Notes under the pieces: model-generated
The model's input: only the letters and a program-made list of their open reading frames with translations
The model's database searches: none
Told to the model about the DNA's origin: nothing
From: Selenomonadales bacterium
Lineage (GTDB): Bacteria > Bacillota > Negativicutes > RGIG982
Assembly: GCA_017442105.1 (NCBI GenBank)
Contig: JAFSAX010000134.1
Span: 1-45,400, forward strand
Direction: 5' to 3'
DNA: 45,400 nt
Shown here: one piece after another, positions 4,637 through 45,400 of the stretch
Position numbering within the stretch: position 1 is the first letter of the stretch
How the letters are laid out: every line of letters starts with the position of its first letter
Translations under genes and position numbers: made by a program

Positions 4637-7600
4637 CTACTTTATTTTTTTGTCAAATACGATCGCTTTCAGCACTTCGCCAATATCGTTGTCGAAATCG
4701 TTGTCCGCATATCGGATAAACGTCCAGATGCCATCCGTTATCGTATCGCTCCAGCCTGTGAACGAATTAGATGCCCTTGTCACTTCTCTGCCGACATCGA
4801 TCCAATCCTTTTTCTTGGACATGATCGCCTGCGATGCACGTTGTGCGCGATCGACCACATCGTATGCCGAGGTCATTTTTGCACCGTATACGCGCTCGCC
4901 CATGAACACACCAACCGTTACCTTGAAAAACTCTCTTGCGATTGGGATCATGCCGAACACCTGCTCGCCGAACGACTGCGCCATATGTGCAGGATCGAAT
5001 ACTTTTTTGATACGCTCCGACATATCTTCCTCATCGTCTCCCCACAGCGCACGAAGCACTTCTTCCATCGCCTTCGTAAGAATGAGCCAATACAGCACGC
5101 TTCGCGCAAATTTCATCCATTCTCCCGCGTTGACTGCCCTGCCGTAACGGAAGGCAAGCGCATTGAATACGGTGTTCATATACGAATAGAACATTGTGAG
5201 CTGTTTTGCGACTTCATGACTTCGCTGAACAGGCGCAAGGTCCTTGACATCACCGCTGCCGAATACGCGTCTGACCGCCGCATCGCCTGCCGCTACTGCT
5301 CTCCGCTCGATATTCTCCGCCGAGAGACCTTTTCCCACGCCTTCCCGATACACTCTTTCGTACTCGCTTTTCCAAAGCGGCGCAGCAAACATAAGATCGG
5401 TATATGCCATCAACGTAAAAGCATGCTCCTCCGCCCATTCGATTTTTTCTTTCGCTCCTCTGATCACCTTGCCTGCGAGATTCGGGAGCTTGCTTTCTCC
5501 TTCTCGTATCTCTCTCAGCTTCTCGCGCACATCTCGATCCATCGTCTCTGCTCGATGAGCAAGAAATTCCGATTTTTCCAGACAGAACTGATATTCCTTA
5601 ACAGGATCGGACGCAAAATTCCTCAGAGCGGCAAACGTTCTGCCTGCGCCGATATACTCGGTCACAGGCGCAATGTTCACCAGATTCAGCGCTGCAACAG
5701 TGACGCGCCAGCCCATGACAGCCATCGTCGCGTTTCTGCGAAGGAACGCCGCAACCTTGGTGATCTTATCCTTCTTCTCGTCCATCACCCAATTATCTTT
5801 CACCCACTTGTCCAGACTTCTGTGTGTCGATGTGCCGTACGCTTCTTCGATAGCCACTCTGACTTCCTGCGCATTGATGAGCTTGTAGACATCTCGGATC
5901 GCCTCACGATAACAGATGTTGTGGATCACATCGTCAAGTGCCTTTGGGAGAGGATCAAGCACCGTATAGATCGGTCGCTCGATCGTCTGCCGACTGCGCT
6001 GTTTTGTGAATCCTCGGCGCGTACCAAGCACGGCATTGCCGCTCATCTGCATTTTGGCGACATCGTCTTTCTCTAGGTCCTGCTGCCGTCCGCTTTTGGT
6101 CGGATCATACATGATTGGATAATAGCCGCCCGCAAGATGGTAGACAGTGCCGTCCTTGCCGACGATATCAAACGGCACTGCCTGCTGTTTCTCAATTCCT
6201 ACGCCTGTCATGCGCTCCTCAATAGCGACCGTATCGCCCCAGAACGATTCAAGCAGAGTCCACACGCCTGTGACCGTCTGCCAATCCTCCGCAGTAAGAT
6301 TGCCCAACACTTCTTCAATGTCTTTCTCTGTGAGATTGACAAACGCATCTTTATTTTGCTCGTCAGGTTTCTTGAATCCGTCCAAGACACGCTTACGGTT
6401 AAGCTCCGTCCCCCAGTTAAGAGCCAGCACGATAACCTGTTCCTTCGTCAGCACCGAGGTACCGAGCTTATACCGTTCTTCTTTGCGATGCTCTCTGTAT
6501 TTACCGAACAGCTCATGCACAGCCTTTGCCGCCTGCGCCTGCATGCGCATCTCCTTATTCGCCGCCCGATCGATCGGATCATACAGGAACATCATCGATA
6601 CGCCTTCCTTGCCGCCGTCGTTCCAACGGAATATCGTCTCAGGCTTGATAAGTTCTCCAACCGCCGCATCGCGTGCTGCAGTTATCTTTTCAAGTGTAGT
6701 CGGCAGTGTCATGCCCGTCGGATCATCGTTTGCTTTTGCCTTTACGTTCTTACGGACACCATCTGCGATACGTTGTACGGCATCTTCAAACGATACCGCC
6801 TTGCCGTCCTCATCGATGACCGTAAAGAGCCTGTTCGCATTTTGTCCGATGGTGTATACGCTCGTCAGAATGTCGAACAATCCGTCAAACTCATCCTTCG
6901 TCAATGCACCATAGCCGAGAGCCTTAACAGGGTTCTTCCTGCCTTCAATATTGACCTGCGTTTTGTAGACATCATTGCCGCCTGCCGCATCCTTGATAAA
7001 CTGCGGGATATCGACCTCGCCGTCCTCGTCAAGGAAGTGTGCTTCATATTCTTTGGCATACCGCTTGAACATCGCATCGACGCTCTCGCTCCCCTGCCAC
7101 TCCTGTGGCATGATGGCATCTCGGCGATTGACACCGAACACGTAGAGAAGATGGTTATAAAAATAGCGTTCATCAGCCGCCAATTTGACATTGCCTTTGG
7201 CGATACTGTTTGAACGCTTTTTCAATTTGTTCACTTTTTTATCTACATCTGCTTTCAGTTTTGCAGATTCGTCGGCGAAGTAGCTGAACATGACCTGCTC
7301 CCGCTTCGCTTGTTTCGCTTCTTGCCACTTACCCTTTGCCATCAGACGTGCGACCTCGACACCTTTCATGCGTTCCTTATGCCGCCATGAGTAAGTAGCT
7401 GTCGCCTGTCTGATCGGCATATACATCAGATTCATGAACGCAGCACGTTTGTACATATCCATCTGCCCTTCGACCGCATCACGTACCAGTCGGATACCTT
7501 CTTTTGACGATGTAATAAAGTCCCTAAGCTGTTTGACAGTATCAAGGATCTTCGCCTTGTCCTGCTCTGCCTTTTCCTTCGCCTTGCCTACCGCTTTCTC

Positions 7601-10600
7601 GACAGCTTCTTCCTTATCCTGTTTCGCTTCGACTTTCGCCGCCTGCTTCTGCATTTGATTGATGAGCTTCATCTCGGCTTCACGCCATCGGTAGGTGTAC
7701 TTGAGATCGGCAATTCGTTGTTTGAGCGACTTGACCTCTTTGCCTTCATCCTTCGGCTGTTCTTCTTCGCCGCGAAGAGATTTTTCGATCTCATCCAGAG
7801 CCTTGTCTACGCTCTTGTCAAGACGTCTTTCCTCTTTCTCTTTACGTTCCAGCGCTTCATATTCAAGCGTGAGGATCATCGCCTTATATTTTGAGGATGA
7901 TAGAGCCTTTTCCGCTTCTGCGTTTACAGTCGCTTCAACATCAGTATACGAATCCATATCTTCTACGGCTTGTGCCAGCTCTTTTTCAACCGCTTTTTCA
8001 AGACCGCCGCCGTGCATTTCAAGCTCTGCTTTATAGCTTTCTTCGGTATATCCAAGCGTAGGCAGGATATCCATACTTCCGGACAATCGTACACACTCTT
8101 CTGCACGGAAAATATCCTGTTCTTTTAACCGCTCCTCAATATCCTCGCGCATCGCCTTGATGATCTCCTGTCTGCCCGCTTCCATTTCGTCAGACACATC
8201 TTGCATCGCGATCTTTAACACCTTTTCTTTTGCTTCTTCCTTCGCTTCGCGTACCCATCGTTCGTACATCGCCTGCGTCGTATCGTCGAGTATCTGCATA
8301 CCCTTTTTCTTCGTAATAGATTCGATGCCCTGTACCTTTGCTTCGGCTTCTATCTCCTGCTCGCTTGCGAGCATACGTGCCATAACCGCCCGTACTTCCG
8401 CAGACGGTTTCCCGCCGAGCTGTACGAAATCGGCATAGATGTCGCACAGCCACTTTTTAAACGTGCGGAATACTGCTCTAAGACCGCGTACAGGTGCTTC
8501 GCCTGTGCGTAAGTACGCTTCGAATCCTCGAGCAAACTTCTCATGCTGTTCCCTTGTGAATCCTTGACTATCCTTATACCCAAGCCATTCTTTGACCGTC
8601 TGCCAATCTCTGACGAGCTGTGCAGGCGCACCATCCATCTCGGCAAGCATCTTAAGATCGGCAAGTGCTACATGCCCAAGCTCATGTACGAAGGTCGATT
8701 TGTCTGCCGATTCAAACAAGCTCACAACACGAGACATACCGCTGATGCGCGTCTGACCGCGGACGGATTGATTGTACCGCTCGATAACAGAGATAGCCTT
8801 ATCGTCGAATACAACAAAGCATCTTCCGTCAAGATAACCTTCGTAGGTGATTCCTTTGACACCATATTCGTTGAGCTTACGCGATGCTTCTTCAAGAGAA
8901 CCATATTCTTTTACCAACTTGGAGTAGATGGCATGTCCCGTATCGTTGGCGTTGAAGATGTTATACTTATACTCCTTCTCGTAAATCGAATCTGCAATTT
9001 CGTCCAACTCTTTGCCTAGATCACTACCTTTTCGCACATGCCTATGTGTGGAAAAATCAACCCAATCACCAAAAAGAGAACCTTTTACATATTTGTATGT
9101 CTTACCTTTATAGTCGACAAACTTGCCTGTTGTTGTGCGCTTGCCAATCTCTTTTAAGGCATTTATAACTTTTGGAGGTTGCTCTTTAAGTGGTTTCTGT
9201 TCGTCAAGCAGAACATCATTTTCGGGGATATCGACCTCATACAATTCCCCCGGGGTCTTTGCTTCGTTTTCTGTTTTTTCAATACCCTTCGAAGCAAAGT
9301 TTTCCTCCAGATAATCAGCCGCCTCATCAAGTCGTACATCGTTCCATTTGGACGCAGCTTGTTTTAGGCTGAGTATGGTCGCGGCGACGTTGCCATTTTC
9401 GTTGCTCAGGTAATTCAATGCTCTTTCCAAAACATCAGACGCTCTGTTTCCTTCGGCATCTCGCCATTCGCCCCGCACTGCTTTGTACCCAAGATAAATA
9501 CTTTCTTTTACTTCCCCTGCTAATCTGCGGCGGTATTCTTCTGATACCTTCTTGTCCTGTGCGAAGTACAGCCCCCATCCATGCGCCTGTGCTCCTTCGC
9601 CTGTGCCGATCGCGCCCAAGTCGAAGGTATCAAAGGTATGCGGCGTGCCGTGATACGCGGTCTGATAATATGTAGGCATTCCCTTTTTTCGCTTGCGTAA
9701 ATCGTTTTCATTTGGTATATTAGTAGTAGATAAACTACTGATTTTGTTGAGGACGTAGGGCGGTTTGAGCCTTGCCTCCCTTAACCAATCAGTAGTTTTT
9801 TTCTTGTTTATATACCGAATTTTATTGGTATTAAGGAAATTGTCTATAAACCATTTGTAATCTGTTTGTTTAACTGCATTGGCTGTGCCGTAAGCACTGT
9901 CTTTCCCATAGGATGATAAAATAAAGTTTGCGTTATTGCCTGTGCTGTCTCTTTTTTCTAATAAAAAAGTCACAATACTGACATCGTTTTTGTCGCCCAA
10001 ATCCAACGCTACTAAAATATTCCCGTTAGATTCAGCAACAAATAGAGGATCAGTAAGAGCCCTCGGGATTTTTTTTAGCTCTTCCTTTCCTATACTGTCT
10101 TTGTGTTTCACAAGAATATGCTCAAAAGTTTTATTCTTTATTTTTATCGGTAAGTGTGCAACGCCTGCTATTTCCAAAGCTAACGGAGTATGCATCACAT
10201 AGCTTTCTCCACGCTTCGGAAGTTTTGTCCAAGTATCTACCGTTTTTGCAAAATCAGCTTCATCTTTCTTCAATTTTGCTTCAGCAATATCTTGTCCATA
10301 CGCGCCTTCTTCCACTTCCGTCGCATCTGCCACGATAGAGGTACGTTCACGCATATAATCCTCGGCTGTATACGGTTTGCCTGTTATCTTGCTGATATTG
10401 TCTGCCATACGGTCTGCATATCTGGCGAACAGGATGGCATTCATTCTGCCTGCCTTCTGTACATCTGCATTGCCGCGTTCAAACTGCTTGCGTGCCGCTT
10501 GATATACCTTGTAGCCGCTCGGTGTAAGACCGCGCACTACTGCCATCTCGCTCGCTGTGAGGTTTTCTACCTTGCCTTTGATATCATTGAGAATATCAAG

Positions 10601-12988
10601 ATTCGCAAAGTCCTGATCGAGTGCATCGAAGTCCTCCTGCATCTCGTCTGTTGCTTCAAAGGTATATTCGGGCATCTGGTAGCGTTCGCCGCCGCCCTTG
10701 TATATCTCGCGTGCCATCTCCCACAGCTCGGCTTTGTTCGGCTTACGTTTATGCTGTTTATAAAAGTCGCTATACCACTCGTCATTATCGCTCATGCGTT
10801 TTGCAGGATGGCCTATCTCGTCAGAGTAGTACATATGTATGCCTCTGCTCATGCCTTCTTCCAGTTTCTTCACGATATTGCCGAGGCGCGCATTGATAGC
10901 TGTTTCTGTATCGTGCTTCATCTGTTTCCATGCCTGCATCGGATTGGACGGATTCGACAGGATGATAGCCGCGCCCATGTCCTGCTCTATGCCTGCTTCG
11001 GGGAAATTTGCCGTGATAATACCGTCTATCAGCTCTGCCTGCTTTTCTTCCTGCTCGATGCTGATGCTTTTTGCCATCTCCTCAGCAACAGCCATATAGT
11101 ATTTCTTACGTGCCGCGCTGTGTCCCTTTTCATCAAAAGAGATGTACCGATCGAACTTATCATTGTTCATTACCGTCTGCGCGTAGATTTCCGTAGGCAC
11201 GATGAGATCAGCCTTATTTTCGATGATGGCGTTGACTTCTTCTTGCTCAAGTCCCATTTCCTCAACAAGCTGATTGAACACTACCGCGCCTTCTTCGTCC
11301 TGCAGGGCAAGTTCCGTGTCGACGCGTACTTCCTTAAACTCCGTGTTCTCAACTGCACCTTTGACAGCCGCTTGATAGATCTCTGGATTTTTCTTGAACA
11401 ACTTCGATTCTGCCATATTCGCCTGCAGATTCTTTATCATGGCAAGACCGTTCGCACGCTTCATCTCTGCAAAGAAGATATCATTTTGCTCTTTCTGCAG
11501 ACGGGCAAAGTCGCTCACGCTTTTGAAATTCGACACCGTACCACCGATAACGCCAAGACCGATGATACCGGGAAGAGCTTCTGCCGACGCTTCCAGCGCA
11601 CCTTTGGCAAACTCTGTACCTGTATACTTACGGTATGCCGCCTGTGGTGCATACGTTACGATGGCATTATGTACCGCCTTATCGCTTGCATCCTGCACCG
11701 CTTCTTCTGCCGCTTCGGTCGCTCCTGCTTTTGCCGCCTGCAATACGCGCTCTCTGATGAATTGGGACATACCTGCTTTCAACATTGCTTGATCGCCCGA
11801 TGCCTTTGCCACGATTTCCATGATATCACGCTTGTAATTTGCACCGAGGAGATTCATGATCTGACCGTAATTCCAGAACTCCACGCCTGTTTCCATACCT
11901 GCCGCGATCGCCGCGAACGCACGTGCTTCATTCGGCGTCAAAAGGGTTTTGCCGTCTTTTGACTTCATCTCGCTGTACTCGGCATAATGTCTGCCTGCGC
12001 TGTTCATGAACATATCCTCTGCCATACCGTATCTGAATCCGATACCTGCCGTTGTGATAGCCGCACCCATAGCAGGAGCAGCAAGTGTACCACCCGACAT
12101 GACTGATACACCTACCCCTGTCGCAAGAGCCGTAGCCGCAAGGTTTGATCCTCTCTGTATCCCCTTGTTCATGTGGTAGAGATTAGCACCCGTACCGCCC
12201 GCGATTGCTACCCAAGGATCGTCAAGGAGATTCGGCATAGACTTCTGCTCGGGGATAGACTTCTTGATAGATGCGATCTCTTTTTTCATCTCATCTGTCA
12301 GCTCACCGCCTGCAAAACCAAACACGCCAAGCTCACCGATGCGGTAATTCGCCTTGTCCATCGCATACCCAAGGCTAAACGCCTCTGTTGCCGACTTTGC
12401 TTTCGTCAAGTCCTCGATATTGTGCATGGCGATAGCAACATCGGTATCGCTCATATTCGGATTCTCAACGACTTCTTTCAGCCCGGGGAACTTCGCATAC
12501 ACAGCATCCATATCGTCCCAATCGTTGATACCCTCGGGCGCAAGTGCCATACGCTTCTTCGTATACTCCTGCACACTTCTGCCCTTCGCCATGTTCTCGT
12601 CACTGTACAACAGTGCATTGACAGGGATACCTGTTTCAATACTGATGACCTGTGCCTCACGCTTCTTTTCTTCATCCGTCGCCAAATATTTTCTATACGC
12701 ATTACTGCCTTTCAGATAAGCGGCTGTATCCGATGCAGTTTCAACGATCGTAGACACCGCGCCTGTAAATGGTGCCACAGCACTTACAACATTCTCCGAT
12801 ACATCCGCACTTACCACACCTGTCATCGCACCGCCCGCCAAGTCAAGCATAGACAGATTGTCTGTGCTGTACTCATACTTCGGTTTCACAGGAGCAGGAG
12901 AGGATTGCTGTGCCTTGCGAATGCGTTCTGCACGCTGTTCGTCAACGAGCTTCAATCGCCGTTGCCACCGCTCAATATCGTTTGCCAT
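4637..12988 (-). CDS. Giant (2,783 aa) multi-domain internal virion / ejection protein of the polyvalent type
   Basis: Uninterrupted ORF in the T7 gp16 position after the other core proteins. Gly/Ala-rich hydrophobic N-terminus, an HILVKH nuclease-like module, a YHGTPH...GWGLYFA module, HELGH, an E/K coiled coil, and a roughly 900-aa C-terminal region. Confidence 0.85.
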   Translation of the reverse strand: MANDIERWQRRLKLVDEQRAERIRKAQQSSPAPVKPKYEYSTDNLSMLDLAGGAMTGVVSADVSENVVSAVAPFTGAVSTIVETASDTAAYLKGSNAYRKYLATDEEKKREAQVISIETGIPVNALLYSDENMAKGRSVQEYTKKRMALAPEGINDWDDMDAVYAKFPGLKEVVENPNMSDTDVAIAMHNIEDLTKAKSATEAFSLGYAMDKANYRIGELGVFGFAGGELTDEMKKEIASIKKSIPEQKSMPNLLDDPWVAIAGGTGANLYHMNKGIQRGSNLAATALATGVGVSVMSGGTLAAPAMGAAITTAGIGFRYGMAEDMFMNSAGRHYAEYSEMKSKDGKTLLTPNEARAFAAIAAGMETGVEFWNYGQIMNLLGANYKRDIMEIVAKASGDQAMLKAGMSQFIRERVLQAAKAGATEAAEEAVQDASDKAVHNAIVTYAPQAAYRKYTGTEFAKGALEASAEALPGIIGLGVIGGTVSNFKSVSDFARLQKEQNDIFFAEMKRANGLAMIKNLQANMAESKLFKKNPEIYQAAVKGAVENTEFKEVRVDTELALQDEEGAVVFNQLVEEMGLEQEEVNAIIENKADLIVPTEIYAQTVMNNDKFDRYISFDEKGHSAARKKYYMAVAEEMAKSISIEQEEKQAELIDGIITANFPEAGIEQDMGAAIILSNPSNPMQAWKQMKHDTETAINARLGNIVKKLEEGMSRGIHMYYSDEIGHPAKRMSDNDEWYSDFYKQHKRKPNKAELWEMAREIYKGGGERYQMPEYTFEATDEMQEDFDALDQDFANLDILNDIKGKVENLTASEMAVVRGLTPSGYKVYQAARKQFERGNADVQKAGRMNAILFARYADRMADNISKITGKPYTAEDYMRERTSIVADATEVEEGAYGQDIAEAKLKKDEADFAKTVDTWTKLPKRGESYVMHTPLALEIAGVAHLPIKIKNKTFEHILVKHKDSIGKEELKKIPRALTDPLFVAESNGNILVALDLGDKNDVSIVTFLLEKRDSTGNNANFILSSYGKDSAYGTANAVKQTDYKWFIDNFLNTNKIRYINKKKTTDWLREARLKPPYVLNKISSLSTTNIPNENDLRKRKKGMPTYYQTAYHGTPHTFDTFDLGAIGTGEGAQAHGWGLYFAQDKKVSEEYRRRLAGEVKESIYLGYKAVRGEWRDAEGNRASDVLERALNYLSNENGNVAATILSLKQAASKWNDVRLDEAADYLEENFASKGIEKTENEAKTPGELYEVDIPENDVLLDEQKPLKEQPPKVINALKEIGKRTTTGKFVDYKGKTYKYVKGSLFGDWVDFSTHRHVRKGSDLGKELDEIADSIYEKEYKYNIFNANDTGHAIYSKLVKEYGSLEEASRKLNEYGVKGITYEGYLDGRCFVVFDDKAISVIERYNQSVRGQTRISGMSRVVSLFESADKSTFVHELGHVALADLKMLAEMDGAPAQLVRDWQTVKEWLGYKDSQGFTREQHEKFARGFEAYLRTGEAPVRGLRAVFRTFKKWLCDIYADFVQLGGKPSAEVRAVMARMLASEQEIEAEAKVQGIESITKKKGMQILDDTTQAMYERWVREAKEEAKEKVLKIAMQDVSDEMEAGRQEIIKAMREDIEERLKEQDIFRAEECVRLSGSMDILPTLGYTEESYKAELEMHGGGLEKAVEKELAQAVEDMDSYTDVEATVNAEAEKALSSSKYKAMILTLEYEALERKEKEERRLDKSVDKALDEIEKSLRGEEEQPKDEGKEVKSLKQRIADLKYTYRWREAEMKLINQMQKQAAKVEAKQDKEEAVEKAVGKAKEKAEQDKAKILDTVKQLRDFITSSKEGIRLVRDAVEGQMDMYKRAAFMNLMYMPIRQATATYSWRHKERMKGVEVARLMAKGKWQEAKQAKREQVMFSYFADESAKLKADVDKKVNKLKKRSNSIAKGNVKLAADERYFYNHLLYVFGVNRRDAIMPQEWQGSESVDAMFKRYAKEYEAHFLDEDGEVDIPQFIKDAAGGNDVYKTQVNIEGRKNPVKALGYGALTKDEFDGLFDILTSVYTIGQNANRLFTVIDEDGKAVSFEDAVQRIADGVRKNVKAKANDDPTGMTLPTTLEKITAARDAAVGELIKPETIFRWNDGGKEGVSMMFLYDPIDRAANKEMRMQAQAAKAVHELFGKYREHRKEERYKLGTSVLTKEQVIVLALNWGTELNRKRVLDGFKKPDEQNKDAFVNLTEKDIEEVLGNLTAEDWQTVTGVWTLLESFWGDTVAIEERMTGVGIEKQQAVPFDIVGKDGTVYHLAGGYYPIMYDPTKSGRQQDLEKDDVAKMQMSGNAVLGTRRGFTKQRSRQTIERPIYTVLDPLPKALDDVIHNICYREAIRDVYKLINAQEVRVAIEEAYGTSTHRSLDKWVKDNWVMDEKKDKITKVAAFLRRNATMAVMGWRVTVAALNLVNIAPVTEYIGAGRTFAALRNFASDPVKEYQFCLEKSEFLAHRAETMDRDVREKLREIREGESKLPNLAGKVIRGAKEKIEWAEEHAFTLMAYTDLMFAAPLWKSEYERVYREGVGKGLSAENIERRAVAAGDAAVRRVFGSGDVKDLAPVQRSHEVAKQLTMFYSYMNTVFNALAFRYGRAVNAGEWMKFARSVLYWLILTKAMEEVLRALWGDDEEDMSERIKKVFDPAHMAQSFGEQVFGMIPIAREFFKVTVGVFMGERVYGAKMTSAYDVVDRAQRASQAIMSKKKDWIDVGREVTRASNSFTGWSDTITDGIWTFIRYADNDFDNDIGEVLKAIVFDKKIK

Positions 12989-41235: not shown

Positions 41236-41694
41236 TTATTTTTTGACAAACGCTACCGCCATCCATTGTCTGAATAGTTTGCCTTCTACCATGTCTGGAT
41301 CTTCGAAGTAGAGTGCTTTTGCCATCTTTACATAGATGTCTGCACTTGTACCCATGCTTGCCGACAAGTCGGAGTACAACATATTCATCGCGTAGTAGAA
41401 GTCGCACTTATGCTCGATGCCGTGCGCGAGAGCCAGTTTGTCGGTATCGTCTTTCGTCCAATGACCACCGACGGTGCCGTCCACGTTGTGCATCTTGCCG
41501 ACAGCCATTTTCGCCGTATCTTCATCGAAGTGCATACCGTGGAGCAGGCAATGCAGTTTTGTGACCATTGCCCAATACGTTTCAGGACAATACTTCTTCA
41601 AATCTTCTGCCATCTCGCAGACAACGTGTTTTGCTTCTTTATACTTCTCTGGATGCTGTTCAAGCTTCTCCATGTACTTCTTTAATTCGTGCAT
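41236..41694 (-). CDS. Cargo protein E: 152-aa helical His/Met-rich protein of unknown function
   Basis: The ATG at 41694 shares one base with the D stop (TAATG). GAGGAGGG RBS. Sequence begins MHELKKYMEKLEQHPEKYKE and contains GKMHNVDGTVGGHWTKDDT. Confidence 0.65.
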   Translation of the reverse strand: MHELKKYMEKLEQHPEKYKEAKHVVCEMAEDLKKYCPETYWAMVTKLHCLLHGMHFDEDTAKMAVGKMHNVDGTVGGHWTKDDTDKLALAHGIEHKCDFYYAMNMLYSDLSASMGTSADIYVKMAKALYFEDPDMVEGKLFRQWMAVAFVKK

Positions 41695-42077
41695 TATGCG
41701 CCCTCCTCTGCCGTTCCTGCGGTCGTAGTAGGTGCAGGTATACCAACTATCGCACCGCAATTTTCAGCTCGCAGGAAGCCATTCCAGAGGACAAAACGAG
41801 CGGTGTCTGCCGCGACCTTCACGACATATCTGCATCTCGTCTTGACTTGGTTTGCATACACGTTATGACCGCATTTGCGAACGAGTGGGTACTGTGTAGC
41901 ATCCGTCCCGATCTGAATCACAACTGGCATCAGATTAGTCGCAGTCGCAGGAATGTCCTGTGCGATTCTGATAACGTATTGACAGCAGTTCTGGAAGGTC
42001 GCCTGCGGCAATGTCAGCACAAGCGTATCAGCCGTCACCGCGACAGCCGTGGTCAATATCTCTTTACAACAATTCAT
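41694..42077 (-). CDS. Cargo protein D: 127-aa beta-rich, Cys-studded protein starting MNCC
   Basis: AAGGAGG RBS. Cys residues occur at MNCC, QNCCQ, RKCGH, TRCRY and ENCG. Confidence 0.7.
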   Translation of the reverse strand: MNCCKEILTTAVAVTADTLVLTLPQATFQNCCQYVIRIAQDIPATATNLMPVVIQIGTDATQYPLVRKCGHNVYANQVKTRCRYVVKVAADTARFVLWNGFLRAENCGAIVGIPAPTTTAGTAEEGA

Positions 42078-42091
42078 GTCTATTCCTCCTT

Positions 42092-42120
42092 ATAAAAAGA
42101 GAGGCGTTACCGCCTCTCTC
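42092..42120 (-). terminator. Intrinsic terminator or attenuator between cargo genes C and D
   Basis: Minus RNA forms AGAGAGGCG-GUAA-CGCCUCUCU followed by UUUUAU, directly abutting the D RBS. Confidence 0.65.
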
Positions 42121-42142
42121 ATAGTCACGCCGAAGCGGAAAG

Positions 42143-42865
42143 TTATGCAGCTACACCGCAACCGTATCCACAGCCGCCATAGCCGTAATTGTGACGAATC
42201 GATTCATACGGGCTCGACACAACATACGCAGGTACTACAGGCGGACGGACCGTATTGACGATGTTTTCCGTCTGGCGAATGTTGCCGATCTGAAGCTGTG
42301 CCGCTTGCAGGTCGAATTGAAGCTGTGCGATGCGCTGATCTTTCGCGTTCGATTCCATCAAGCAGAGCTTGTCAAGAATCTTCTGCGTATTTGCGGTCGC
42401 ATTATTCGTGATCGTGCACGTGTTCTGTGCGTTTTCAAAGCGAACCGCATCAATGTTGCGGTTCGTTTCGCAACAACATTGCTGTGCCGCGAATCTGTTC
42501 TCGGCGATCGCCGAGCCGAGAGCAAAACGATTCTCAAGAACATCACGACCAAGACCGTTGAAGCCCTGAAGCATCGTAGTATTTTGTGCATAGAAGCCGT
42601 CAGCAAGACCGTTCTGCACGCCACGAATACCGTTCTTGATATCCTGCGAATTGAAACCATCAAATAAATCGTTGCGAGTAAGTGCACCGTTGGCGAATGC
42701 CGCCATGCCGTTGTTGCCCCAACCGCCGAAACCACCGCCACCCAAAAGAGCGAACAGCACTAAGAACCACATACAACCGCCACCGCCCCAACCGAAGCCG
42801 TCATTGTAACCGCGATTATTAATGTCCATGACAGGCACTACGCCTGCGCCATTTTCAAATGCCAT
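42143..42865 (-). CDS. Cargo protein C: 240-aa Gly/Asn/Gln/Cys-rich membrane protein
   Basis: The ATG at 42865 lies 6 nt after GAGGTG; the track GTG start is part of that RBS. Features are GWGGGGCMWFLVLFALLGGGGFGGWGNNG, QQCCCETNRN and the C-terminal NYGYGGCGYGCGVAA. Confidence 0.7.
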   Translation of the reverse strand: MAFENGAGVVPVMDINNRGYNDGFGWGGGGCMWFLVLFALLGGGGFGGWGNNGMAAFANGALTRNDLFDGFNSQDIKNGIRGVQNGLADGFYAQNTTMLQGFNGLGRDVLENRFALGSAIAENRFAAQQCCCETNRNIDAVRFENAQNTCTITNNATANTQKILDKLCLMESNAKDQRIAQLQFDLQAAQLQIGNIRQTENIVNTVRPPVVPAYVVSSPYESIRHNYGYGGCGYGCGVAA

Positions 42866-42917: not shown

Positions 42918-43145
42918 TCAAAGTTTCATTCCGAATTGTGATAAGAATTGATTGAGGGAGGCATCGTCCATTCCTCTCTGGCGAGCGAGATTGCGAACAG
43001 TCGCTTTCAGCTCGTCCTCGTTTTTGCCTTGTGCCATCTGCATTGCTCGACCGAACATCGGGTCATTACCGAACTGCTGTTGCATCAGCGCCATTGGATT
43101 CTGACTTGACTGTAACATTTGCATCATTTGCATTGGATTGAACAT
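42918..43145 (-). CDS. Cargo protein B: 75-aa Gln/Met-rich protein
   Basis: GGAAGGGGTG RBS. Sequence begins MFNPMQMMQMLQSSQNPMALMQQQF. Its first 80 nt overlap gene A in another frame. Confidence 0.5.
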   Translation of the reverse strand: MFNPMQMMQMLQSSQNPMALMQQQFGNDPMFGRAMQMAQGKNEDELKATVRNLARQRGMDDASLNQFLSQFGMKL

Positions 43146-43615: not shown

Positions 43616-43660
43616 CACACAACGCATTTTTACAACCAAAAAATGCGTGTTGTGGTTTTT
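43616..43660 (+). repeat. Long imperfect inverted repeat followed by a T-run (plus-strand terminator-like or operator-like)
   Basis: Core stem of 10 bp, acgcattttt/aaaaatgcgt, with a 7-nt loop. Four further bp form after a bulge, then gttttt follows. Confidence 0.45.
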
Positions 43661-43710: not shown

Positions 43711-43743
43711 AAAAAAAGAAGCACCCCCTTAAAAAGGGAGTGC
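43711..43743 (-). terminator. Intrinsic terminator ending the late/lysis operon
   Basis: Minus RNA forms GCACUCCCU-loop-AGGGGGUGC (one G-U pair) followed by UUCUUUUUUU. Confidence 0.8.
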
Positions 43744-43977
43744 CTCTTGTATTGCCTTATGCAATTTGTCGTAGGCACGTTCTATCCGTCTGCCTACTGT
43801 TTTTTCAGAGAGATTCATGTGATACGCGATCTTCACATTGCTCCACCGTTTGCTGAACTTCAGCCGAATGATCTCACATTCTTCCTCGCTCAAGTTCGCT
43901 TCTTCGATGAGCGTATCTAATTCAGATCGGATCGCTCTGTCGGCGACATCACGTGCTGACTTGCGGTGTTCTCGCAT
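43729..43977 (-). CDS. 82-aa sigma-70 region-4-like HTH protein
   Basis: The ATG at 43977 lies 7 nt after GGAGG. LSEEECEIIRLKFSKRWSNVKIAYHMNLSEKTVGRRIERAYDKL is the HTH. Confidence 0.65.
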   Translation of the reverse strand: MREHRKSARDVADRAIRSELDTLIEEANLSEEECEIIRLKFSKRWSNVKIAYHMNLSEKTVGRRIERAYDKLHKAIQEALPF

Positions 43978-44159
43978 TCGTTTCCTCCTTCTATGTAAGA
44001 GAACAGGAATGCGAGATTGAATGCAATACTCGCAACCAAGAGCAATACCGCGTAGAAACATCCTCTCTTCAATCGGCTAATTACTCTTTCCTGTTCATTG
44101 ATTTTCTCCGTTGATTTAACCATGTGCATTGTTGCGATTGCTTCCTTTACCTCTGTCAT
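43917..44159 (-). CDS. 80-aa coiled-coil plus single-TM protein in the lysis cassette
   Basis: AGAGGGGGA RBS. TM segment is FYAVLLLVASIAFNLAFLF. Its tail overlaps the next gene by 61 nt. Confidence 0.5.
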   Translation of the reverse strand: MTEVKEAIATMHMVKSTEKINEQERVISRLKRGCFYAVLLLVASIAFNLAFLFSYIEGGNECENTASQHVMSPTERSDLN

Positions 44160-44200: not shown

Positions 44201-44722
44201 TTAAAATTTCATTTTTACACCGACAGCCGTACTGTCATTGTCTCGATACACCCATCCACCGACCGTATCTGACTTGCCGATGGGAAAGTCCACCGTATAT
44301 GCCATGCCGTCATTGCCGTATCCGACACCGACTGCCCATCGCTTAGTTTCGTCCCGCGTGGGAACATTCACGTCCATCGTGACTTTGCTCGTCTGGTCGA
44401 GTGTGAGTTTGTTTTTATCGAACACATACCGTTCGTCCTCAGCTTTCGTGAATGTCTGTTCCTGCCCGTTCACGCGGACAACGAAGTCGGTCTTGCCGAC
44501 GTCTGCTTGCAGGTCTGTCTTTTCTTTTTTCCCATTGACTACAGTTTTCGGCACGTATGCGATCTCGGTCTTTGTTACCGTTTCGCCCTGCACGTATACG
44601 GGCTTTTCTTTTGTCACCGTGATAGTTTCCCTTGACGCGTAATGTTCGCCCGCCAGACAGCCGCCTACGAAGCACAGCAGGCATACGCATACAGTAGGGA
44701 TATACTGTTGAATGTTCATCAT
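44201..44722 (-). CDS. Lipoprotein with a beta-strand C-terminus ending in Phe (spanin-like or outer-membrane candidate)
   Basis: Signal peptide with the lipobox CFVGG-C. C-terminus is WAVGVGYGNDGMAYTVDF...TAVGVKMKF. ATGA-coupled to the amidase. Confidence 0.65.
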   Translation of the reverse strand: MMNIQQYIPTVCVCLLCFVGGCLAGEHYASRETITVTKEKPVYVQGETVTKTEIAYVPKTVVNGKKEKTDLQADVGKTDFVVRVNGQEQTFTKAEDERYVFDKNKLTLDQTSKVTMDVNVPTRDETKRWAVGVGYGNDGMAYTVDFPIGKSDTVGGWVYRDNDSTAVGVKMKF

Positions 44723-45234: not shown

Positions 45235-45400
45235 TTTTTCTCCTCCTTCTCAAATTGATCGGGGATCCCATCTTTGTCGGTATCGACCATACAGCCTGCG
45301 ATGAATGTCACGAAAGCGATCATTCCACCGCCGACCATTTCGGTGATAAGAGAAAGGAGATCGCGTAGTGCGACCTCTCCTTCTTTCCACAGCCACAGCC
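45231..45400 (-). CDS. Putative holin, 3-prime part (same ORF as 1-286; 45260-45400 duplicates 1-141)
   Basis: In-frame continuation ...DKDGIPDQFEKEEKK. The stop TGA at 45231-45233 overlaps the amidase ATG. Confidence 0.6.
   Translation of the reverse strand, partial: LWLWKEGEVALRDLLSLITEMVGGGMIAFVTFIAGCMVDTDKDGIPDQFEKEEKK
45260..45400. repeat. Terminal direct repeat, copy 2
   Basis: Identical to 1-141. Confidence 0.95.

Follow-up and report, generated by a model that had tools for sequence, protein, structure and literature searches.

A phage protein with a Gly-flanked hydrophobic helix and cysteine-rich ends is the centre of a mobile, regulated gene cassette with an exchangeable knob

The open reading frame (ORF) considered here lies on the minus strand, at positions 42143 to 42865, of a 45,400-nucleotide stretch of DNA (the window), which is identical to a contig (JAFSAX010000134.1) of a metagenome-assembled genome (MAG) labelled Selenomonadales bacterium. 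It codes for a 240-residue protein, referred to below as the CCC protein after its triple-cysteine motif. An earlier note, made from the DNA letters alone, had described the gene as 'cargo' and had likened its product to the tiny YjcZ-type sporulation membrane peptides and to cross-linked or modified peptides. Our analysis reveals that the ORF is a true gene of a phage, strongly constrained by purifying selection; that it is the invariant centre of a conserved five-to-six-gene operon with its own regulator; and that this operon (the cassette) is a mobile, dispensable accessory unit in thousands of gut phages.

The two ends of the window carry an exact direct repeat of 141 bp (1-141 = 45260-45400), which indicates that the contig is a circularly closed assembly, and the window is probably a complete phage genome of about 45.26 kb. 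The proteins it encodes include a terminase, a portal/adaptor protein, a major head protein, tail proteins and tail fibres; an Amidase_3 endolysin, found by a Pfam scan; and an integrase, recognised by reading its translation, whose counterparts in two syntenic loci, L006 and L007, have a Phage_integrase domain. The presence of virion, lysis and integrase genes in one closed circle points to a complete temperate phage genome. The gene order around the circle runs from the tail fibres through the lysis genes and the cassette region to the integrase, and the CCC gene belongs to an accessory region flanked by the lysis genes and the integrase. No Rfam family was matched in the cassette region of the window.

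The start codon of the CCC gene, at 42865, is preceded by a Shine-Dalgarno sequence (GAGGTG). The protein begins with an acidic N-tail and a Gly-flanked hydrophobic helix; a helical stalk, a CCC...C loop and a second long helix follow in this order, and a Pro-rich linker leads to the C-terminal Gly/Cys tail. Its features, with secondary structure taken from AlphaFold2 (AF2), are:

42143-42865, minus strand: coding sequence of the CCC protein, 240 residues, PHROG 16490 family, with the ATG at 42865 and a TAA stop at 42145-42143
42719-42790, minus strand: single membrane-anchor segment, residues 26-49, W-GGGG-CMWFLVLFALL-GGGG-FGGW, with a hydropathy of 2.75 over 11 residues
42482-42709, minus strand: N/G/Q-rich helical region (AF2), residues 53-128, with the motifs NGLxDGFY, QGFNG and, twice, ENRFA
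42416-42478, minus strand: CCC block, residues 130-150, CCCETNRNIDAVRFENAQNTC, the most conserved block of the protein
42248-42385, minus strand: long Gln-rich helix (AF2), residues 161-206, present in two alternative versions among close homologues
42146-42247, minus strand: linker RPPVVPAY..SPY and GCGYGCG tail, residues 207-240, with P208, P212, P219 and Y220 invariant in the set labelled A1

Most of the parts named in the earlier note are present as described: the Gly-flanked helix at residues 25-53 (GWGGGGC-MWFLVLFALL-GGGGFGGWGNNG), with a strongly hydrophobic core of 11 residues between W26 and W49; the QQCCCETNRN motif at residues 128-137; the Gln-rich stretch QLQFDLQAAQLQ at residues 183-194; the C-terminal tail NYGYGGCGYGCGVAA at residues 226-240; and further cysteines, which outside the CCC motif and the tail fall at positions 31, 150 and 168. 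The roughly 150 residues of NG(L/I)x repeats shrink on inspection to a 76-residue N/G/Q-rich stretch (residues 53-128) that does hold five NG[AILM] sites but no significant internal repeat (alignment score 20 versus a shuffle mean of 20.7). AF2, run on a 59-sequence alignment, predicts an all-helical secondary structure. Residues 93-128 have a heptad-like periodicity, and the hydrophobic periodicity of 132 family representatives peaks strongly at 3.5-3.6 residues, as is typical of an amphipathic or coiled-coil helix. Close homologues carry, at residues 161-206, either …NATANTQKILDKLCLMESNAKDQRIAQLQFDLQ… or …AIHAEGEATRALINANTMQNLRDKLADRDRDLQ…, two very different versions set between flanks that are about 80-90% identical; as judged from these sequences, this is mosaic recombination within the gene. 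The tail cysteines 232 and 236 co-vary (r = 0.64).

The ratio of nonsynonymous to synonymous substitution rates (dN/dS) is 0.115 against an 82%-identical homologue. The CCC and tail cysteine motifs, when looked for in homologues, prove to be conserved across the 132 cluster representatives: C130 and C131 are kept in 84%, C132 in 95%, C150 in 81% and the tail cysteine pair in 83-85%. Of the 132, 124 have the Gly-flanked helix and none has a second hydrophobic segment, and the RP.P.PAY...SPY linker is conserved across the family; these motifs are therefore not a chance of composition. Conservation spans the whole length of the protein, with the strongest block internal, at the CCC motif. Full-length members have about 200-310 residues and the same architecture, and the shorter ones among the 150 best cluster representatives look like fragments. 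One 219-residue homologue (P0266) joins the N-terminus of the 154-residue family described below to the C-terminal half of the CCC protein, an apparent fusion that may be a deletion or assembly artefact.

The family is large: a first search gave 5,353 clusters at 90% identity and a second at least 8,000, around a single query, and the 2,260 clusters at 50% identity (E <= 1e-3) are a minimum for its size. The hosts of its phages are Clostridia, Negativicutes, Bacilli and Bacteroidota, both monoderm and diderm, the majority being monoderm. A borderline tblastn match of the homologue in Clostridium perfringens phage CPD1 (E 1e-3, 28% identity) falls in Caudoviricetes sp. vir335 (BK063680.1 / NC_134205.1); the assigned host, Methanomassiliicoccales, is archaeal, and the match would possibly extend the family beyond bacteria.

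Profile searches, which the note had proposed, give a single family, PHROG 16490, which has no assigned function; the match covers the full length (E 1.5e-29, residues 10-238 on profile positions 12-281 of 286). Pfam has no match for the protein and no family for any of 59 members, NCBIfam has none for the protein at E <= 0.1, and a Foldseek search of BFVD with its AF2 model returned only noise (E > 6). Profile searches of the PDB gave nothing significant for the CCC protein or for three of its neighbours (the 127-residue and 154-residue families and the DUF7841 protein). The named homologues hit in the database searches are called 'hypothetical protein', with no functional names; none of the homologues has a function on record, and nothing suggests that the ORF goes untranslated. 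Searches of the available literature on the family, DUF7841 and the PHROG identifiers found nothing relevant, nor was any of the papers listed for YjcZ.

The gene neighbourhood was compared among 80 genome loci, metagenome contigs and phage records by means of iterated hidden Markov models (HMMs) built from the window's neighbouring proteins; counts refer to 83 non-redundant loci, or to the 62 or 65 loci with enough flank. The order and strand of the genes are fixed: regulator and terminator, a 154-residue protein, a 75-residue protein, the CCC protein, a knob slot, and a DUF7841 protein or another helical low-complexity protein. In the window these are, in the direction of transcription:

43729-43977, minus strand: regulator, 82 residues, sigma-70 region 4 / GerE(LuxR)-type helix-turn-helix (HTH) protein (Pfam GerE 4.2e-5, Sigma70_r4 6e-5)
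43716-43748, minus strand: intrinsic terminator after the regulator gene, a 15-pair stem followed by a T-run
43622-43648, no strand assigned: inverted repeat with 11-bp arms, about 92 nt upstream of the start of the 154-residue gene, identical in L006
43066-43530, minus strand: first operon gene, 154 residues, PHROG 21718, upstream of the CCC gene in 62 of 62 loci
42918-43145, minus strand: second operon gene, 75 residues, Met/Gln-rich, overlapping the end of the 154-residue gene and present in 39 of 62 loci
42092-42120, minus strand: 10-bp GC-rich hairpin followed by a U-run, between the stop of the CCC gene and the ribosome binding site of the next gene, terminator- or attenuator-like
41694-42077, minus strand: downstream partner, 127 residues, PHROG 31654, a beta-sandwich 'knob' with the N-terminus MNCC (AF2 predicted local distance difference test, pLDDT, 87)
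41236-41694, minus strand: DUF7841 protein (Pfam PF25223, E 2.7e-21), present in 31 of 65 loci

The regulator, which also matches PHROG 3512 'sigma factor' (E 1.1e-11), precedes the cassette in 44 of the 62 loci. Its terminator is followed by some 190 nt that contain the inverted repeat, a candidate operator or promoter element, and hairpins occur at the same position in most other loci. In the 154-residue protein, a small conserved domain lies between a Met/Gln/Pro/Tyr-rich N-terminus and a coiled-coil-like C-terminal segment. Downstream of the CCC gene, the 58-nt stretch that holds the hairpin (42085-42142) folds at -22.6 kcal/mol (z = -2.9), and the ATG of the DUF7841 gene overlaps the stop of the 127-residue gene (TAATG). 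The protein that takes the place of DUF7841 in the last slot is helical, with an Arg/Asp/Tyr/Gly-rich low-complexity region. On reading their translations, without a predictor, no N-terminal signal sequence was seen in the four window partners.

No enzyme domain was found among the conserved cassette neighbours; radical SAM genes lie 6-8 kb away in L004 and L005 and are not conserved. The remark that no modifying enzyme is encoded nearby thus holds for the eight minus-strand ORFs scanned between 41236 and 45234 (the genes beyond 41236 and the plus-strand integrase block lie outside that scan) and for the conserved neighbours in the 83 loci.

One further gene adjoins the regulator, and its membership in the cassette is uncertain:

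43917-44159, minus strand: 80-residue protein with one transmembrane helix in its C-terminal half, adjoining and overlapping the regulator gene upstream

Small single-transmembrane proteins of 55-115 residues, to which no family could be assigned, directly precede the regulator in many loci (L002, L003, L009-L012, L040, L044, L048 and L091 equivalents). In both loci tested (Dulem virus 35 and L043), a coiled-coil and transmembrane protein of phrog_937 'hemolysin' lies upstream of the regulator. Such proteins could be anti-sigma-like partners or lysis accessories.

Of particular interest is the slot that follows the CCC gene. Its occupants are beta-rich and have about 130-150 residues. The 127-residue family was found in 42 of the 65 loci with enough flank, and loci without it have, in the same place, a protein of about 140 residues that matches Pfam BclA_C (best E 5.4e-8) and PDB entry 9H38 (E 3.9e-7). 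Over all 83 loci, the slot holds the 127-residue family in 55 and a BclA_C-like protein in 24, so that 79 have one or the other and none has both. No homology between the two families is detectable (hhalign probability 1.8%). Foldseek matches of the 127-residue knob are, after its own homologues from uncultured gut phages, the C-terminal tips of tail fibres, receptor-binding proteins and collagen-like fibre proteins (E 1e-4 to 1e-5, template modelling score about 0.5); its best PDB match, a Pa193 baseplate/tail-fibre chain, is not significant (E 0.02). A single slot filled by alternative knob-type domains is a pattern known from binding modules.

Entry 9H38, a crystal structure, shows the C-terminal domain of F-BclA, which forms the tip fibrillum of the F-ENA spore appendages of Bacillus thuringiensis (PMC12357932). 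BclA_C belongs to the TNF/C1q superfamily, and L-BclA and the S-/L-ENA subunits have a CC motif in cysteine-rich N-terminal connectors (PMC12357932). The N-termini of the phage knobs likewise carry conserved CC or C-x3-C-x2-C motifs. The idea that the 127-residue family is related to DUF4183 (F-ENA subunits) was dropped, since neither Pfam nor the Foldseek search of the PDB supported it. Among the Foldseek matches (hit 16) is a 294-residue DUF7841 protein apparently fused to a knob-like sandwich, from crAss-like virus sp. ctRQZ5 (BFVD A0A8S5LXP6).

The cassette occurs in different genomic settings. In this window and in most prophages it follows the lysis genes and lies next to the integrase. 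In Dulem virus 36 it comes right after the receptor-binding protein, with the phage's own holin and autolysin elsewhere and no integrase annotated in the 50,000 of 53,791 bp viewed; in Dulem virus 35 it lies between a minor capsid gene and the probable scaffold (read from sequence) and major capsid genes, with the lysis cassette elsewhere; and in C. perfringens phage CPD1 and Bacteroides phage C3_41T2LP it is part of the early/recombination region. Cultured carriers include Butyrivibrio virus Ceridwen; the C. perfringens phages CPD1, XP41-N3, 17DYC, HMD-PC1, PMQ04 and CPQ4; and Bacteroides phage C3_41T2LP (CPD1 and Ceridwen were viewed over regions of about 12 kb).

Close relatives of some cultured carriers lack the cassette altogether. 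In the flanks, phages phiCP39-O, phiCP26F, phiCP34O, phiCP13O and phiCP9O share about 96% identity with CPD1, and they cover only about 55% of the region; in phiCP39-O, where the cassette HMMs have no match, the antirepressor is followed almost at once by a ferritin-like gene. The cassette-less relatives have the same amidase-plus-holin pair, the comparison with CPD1 covering a region of about 8.6 kb downstream of the pair. Phages phiCP39-O and phiCP26F, both without the cassette, are reportedly propagated phages with published virion proteomes. The existence of near-identical propagated relatives without it implies that the cassette is dispensable for virion formation and lysis, and the CCC protein is neither a holin, nor a spanin, nor a core part of the virion. 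The label 'cargo' is thus apt as far as it refers to an accessory region that relatives do without, and misleading as far as it implies a stand-alone gene, since the CCC gene is the centre of a syntenic operon.

Genes for HNH homing endonucleases (phrog_374, E ~5e-65) lie inside the cassette in CPD1 (L092 5125-5748) and Ceridwen (L091 7121-7915), and a gene annotated I-HmuI is directly upstream of the CCC gene in Bacteroides phage C3_41T2LP (L094 3793-4413). Three unrelated phages have a homing endonuclease gene in or next to the cassette, a hint that homing helps the cassette to spread. In a Bacteroidales MAG contig from roe deer (L015 8400-9812), an insert of about 1.15 kb splits the CCC gene precisely at the CCC codons and carries a 272-residue ORF that has NUMOD1 and I-TevI-type DNA-binding matches, as well as an Rfam Intron_gpI match that is below the gathering score (31 bits, E 1e-5); the insert is probably a self-splicing group I intron with a homing endonuclease. 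Three homologues (P0006, P0010 and P0107) have a 14-residue insert at the same CCC site. A ferritin-like protein with an 'LGLQGFKR' motif is encoded just downstream of the cassette in several loci (L092 7415-7942, L001 9224-10003, L020 9398-10090, L093 3887-4414); since the corresponding gene is also found in the cassette-less phiCP39-O (gp45, annotated 'contains ferritin domain'), it marks an insertion hotspot and is not a cassette member.

We tentatively favor the view, which we hold with limited confidence, that the cassette products form a membrane-anchored complex of anchor, stalk and knob that is built in the infected cell, is exposed at lysis and mediates binding. Within it, and with low-to-moderate confidence by analogy, the CCC protein may be the membrane anchor and coiled-coil stalk on which the knob docks via the cysteine-rich ends, as in a BclA-type fibre split over two genes. 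The CCC protein would insert into the cytoplasmic membrane of the infected cell via its single Gly-flanked helix, in an N-out/C-in orientation that places the short acidic N-tail outside and the large C-terminal part in the cytoplasm, together with the partners that lack signal peptides. The heptad-patterned helices would oligomerise into a stalk; the CCC loop and the Pro-rich Cys/Gly tail would bind the Cys-rich N-terminal connector of the knob, by disulfides or a shared metal; and the Met/Gln-rich proteins would probably chaperone or scaffold the assembly. The product, like BclA-type spore fibres or reovirus sigma-1, would be a fibre of anchor, stalk and knob, here split over separate proteins; it would become exposed on membranes at lysis and then bind, for adhesion, exclusion or as a decoy, while neither causing lysis nor forming an essential part of the virion. 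We consider it more plausible that the Gly/Cys tail docks on, or is cross-linked to, the Cys-rich N-terminus of the knob than that it is the core of a modified peptide.

In favor of this view are the single hydrophobic segment with its acidic N-flank, the predicted helices with their periodicity, the likeness of the knob to fibre tips, the BclA_C match of the alternative knob, the cysteine motifs of the knob N-termini and the apparent DUF7841-knob fusion. Several observations limit it or weigh against it. AF2, on the 59-sequence alignment, gives a pLDDT of 47, that is, no confident fold, and the model can be read for secondary structure only; the oligomeric state and the geometry of the stalk would follow from periodicity only. 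The N-flank of the membrane segment is acidic (Lys/Arg 0.7, Asp/Glu 3.1) and the C-flank has Lys/Arg 1.3, a weak charge bias for the N-out/C-in topology, and the hydrophobic core has only 11 residues. At codon 88 (42602-42604) the window protein has Ala in place of a cysteine that is otherwise common, being present in 20 of the 21 closest aligned homologues and 59% of family representatives (motif NGLCDGFY). The number of tail cysteines in the CCC protein and of N-terminal cysteines in the knob correlate weakly (rho 0.33, p 0.03, uncorrected for phylogeny), which is no more than suggestive of a coupling, and total cysteine counts have no even-number bias (67 even versus 65 odd). Finally, the terminator-like hairpin separates the CCC gene from the knob gene, so that the amounts made could be unequal.

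The closest parallel to the proposed fibre is found in the BclA, L-BclA and F-BclA proteins of Bacillus, with their logic of anchor, stalk and trimeric knob (PMC12357932). In 24 of the 83 loci the gene adjacent to the CCC gene is itself of the BclA_C (TNF/C1q) type, homologous to the F-BclA C-terminal domain, and the window knob, which starts with MNCC, resembles the cysteine-rich connectors with their CC motif. BclA-type proteins are not known to have signal peptides and are assembled within a cell that later lyses. There are also differences. The BclA stalk is collagen-like, whereas that of the CCC protein is predicted to be alpha-helical (it has no GXX repeats, but AF2 helices and the 3.5-3.6-residue periodicity) and is a separate polypeptide from the knob; the BclA_C domain (PF18573) is absent from the CCC protein by Pfam and present only in the adjacent gene; the anchor is a membrane helix rather than an exosporium leader; and the carriers are phages, many of them of non-sporulating hosts, with no detectable BclA_C homology in the window's own knob family. 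In reovirus sigma-1 and the adenovirus fibre, too, a coiled-coil stalk lies between an N-terminal anchor and a beta-sandwich knob at the other end, but no match in sequence or fold was obtained, the knob here is a separate gene, and the presence of the CCC protein in the virion is doubtful.

In our ranking, a role in binding, adhesion or exclusion at the envelope or on lysis debris would come first, an optional virion appendage second and an effector of the abortive-infection type third, with roles in lysis, on the spore surface or as a modified peptide well below these. The CCC protein is a member of none of the characterised families considered: YjcZ, RiPP (ribosomally synthesised and post-translationally modified peptide) precursors, holins, i-spanins, BclA-type proteins and PADLOC systems.

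An optional virion appendage, an accessory fibre on the head or tail that is built from the CCC protein, the knob and the low-complexity proteins and is dispensable like the lambda side tail fibres or T4 Hoc, is unlikely, although it has several points in its favor: the fold of the knob resembles the tips of tail fibres and receptor-binding proteins; the cassette adjoins the receptor-binding protein in Dulem virus 36 and sits among head genes in Dulem virus 35; crAss-like homologues were annotated by their depositors as 'outer capsid protein/viral fiber' or 'spike protein'; and the partners lack signal peptides, as expected of virion proteins. Against it speak the hydrophobic anchor of the membrane type, the cassette's own regulator and terminator, and its location in the early/recombination regions of CPD1 and C3_41T2LP. 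The carriers, moreover, are labelled by their depositors as podo-, myo-, sipho- and crAss-like, which speaks against a docking site peculiar to one type of virion, and close relatives lack the cassette.

It is also unlikely that the CCC protein is a membrane-permeabilising effector of a phage-borne exclusion or abortive infection system, its Gly-flanked helix opening a lethal lesion once the knob or the low-complexity partners detect a competing phage. An accessory, mobile, dispensable and integrase-adjacent location is typical of phage-borne defence and exclusion genes, the multi-gene operon has its own regulator and a single-transmembrane protein, and Tad2-like anti-defence genes occur in the same region of L007. 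The moron exclusion proteins HK97 gp15 and lactococcal Sie2009 are optional, membrane-anchored by a single helix and located at variable sites near tail, lysis and integrase genes, like the CCC protein; they differ in being single genes, whereas the CCC gene is part of an operon with a regulator, a knob and low-complexity proteins. PADLOC has no significant match for any cassette protein (the best, at E 0.018-0.035, are at chance level, in addition to HTH-level matches for the regulator), and the cassette has no enzymatic or nucleotide-sensing component. It is also found within late operons, in the plaque-isolated C3_41T2LP, and in Dulem virus 36, with no integrase annotated in the stretch viewed, and the long conserved stalk and Cys-rich ends would be superfluous for a simple pore.

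A part in lysis, as a class III (T4 T-like) holin or antiholin or as a spanin-like disruptor of the envelope, is improbable. The location of the cassette right after the endolysin in most temperate loci is consistent with it, as are phrog_937 'hemolysin' upstream of the regulator in the two loci tested (similar proteins with a coiled coil and a C-terminal transmembrane helix were seen by eye in several others) and the diderm nature of the Selenomonadales host of the window. The architecture also resembles that of T4 holin T, with one N-terminal transmembrane helix and a large Cys-containing C-terminal domain (the CCC protein has its segment at residues 26-49 and about 190 residues after it), and that of the lambda Rz i-spanin, with an N-terminal transmembrane helix, two helical segments, important cysteines and a location near lysis genes. 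A holin identity was nevertheless rejected on the grounds that carriers have separate, canonical holin-endolysin pairs, away from the cassette in Dulem virus 35, Dulem virus 36 and CPD1, and that propagated close relatives without the cassette keep the same amidase-plus-holin pair; T4 T differs, in addition, in that no homology to it was detected and the cassette has five co-conserved partners. A spanin identity was rejected because monoderm hosts dominate: i-spanins are not known outside phages of diderm hosts, whereas the CCC protein is found in C. perfringens and Butyrivibrio phages and many Clostridia prophages, is dispensable and is often far from the lysis cassette. An i-spanin is oriented N-in/C-out, with its coiled-coil domain in the periplasm, and the charge bias of the CCC protein weakly favors the opposite; nor is an o-spanin-like lipoprotein partner among the conserved genes. 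The window has a better candidate for such a role:

44201-44722, minus strand: 173-residue protein right after the amidase, with a lipobox-like N-terminus (LCFVGGC)

This protein has no Pfam match, is restricted to the five closest Negativicutes-type loci, and is a candidate spanin-like lysis protein for a diderm host.

Conversion of the spore surface, in which spores of the host would be covered with coat- or exosporium-like proteins made from the cassette, is very improbable: the BclA_C-type knob, the GerE-type HTH, Cys-, Gln- and Tyr/Arg/Asp-rich low-complexity compositions reminiscent of coat proteins, and the absence of signal peptides, as in coat and ENA proteins assembled by the mother cell, are outweighed by the location of the cassette in blocks of lytic-cycle genes and by carriers whose hosts, Bacteroides uniformis, Butyrivibrio fibrisolvens, Phascolarctobacterium and the present Selenomonadales MAG, are not known to form spores. 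The two likenesses drawn in the earlier note, to a YjcZ-like tiny membrane peptide and to a cross-linked or modified Gly/Cys peptide precursor, are hardly tenable, given that the resemblance lies in a short hydrophobic stretch between Gly runs, much as in YjcZ-type peptides, and in the Cys/Gly tail, whereas NCBIfam and Pfam have no match, the family has about 200-310 residues (240 in the window) where YjcZ peptides are tiny, no modifying enzyme is conserved near the gene in the 83 loci, and the whole length is conserved under purifying selection, unlike the RiPP layout of a leader and short core with conservation focused on the leader.

Elsewhere in the window, the tail region contains a giant ORF of 2,783 residues (4637-12988, minus strand; phrog_9880). 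Its homologue in L006 has ART-PolyVal and LPD3 domains, which makes it a giant phage protein of the polyvalent type.

The CCC family is very common, yet its members have no functional name or Pfam domain, and we found no described counterpart of the cassette. That the gene holds a fixed central place in a regulated operon, along with a swappable domain of the binding type, marks a functional system and not genomic filler. The natural presence (CPD1, XP41-N3, 17DYC) and absence (phiCP39-O, phiCP26F) of the cassette in near-identical culturable phages makes its function testable with existing strains, and culturable Butyrivibrio and Bacteroides phages carry it as well. A broader proposal, which we regard as rather unlikely, is that gut phages of several phyla carry a kit for a cysteine-linked, membrane-anchored fibre, a phage counterpart of spore appendages, that is built in the infected cell and at lysis decorates the envelope, membrane vesicles or debris, with a swappable knob that binds cells, mucus or rival phages. 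A cysteine-linked fibre assembled within the cell would tie phages to the principles by which spore appendages are put together; an anchor-stalk-knob kit would represent a new class of phage accessory structure; and an exclusion or defence role, if that is what the cassette has, would make it a new device of this kind with a high abundance in the human gut.

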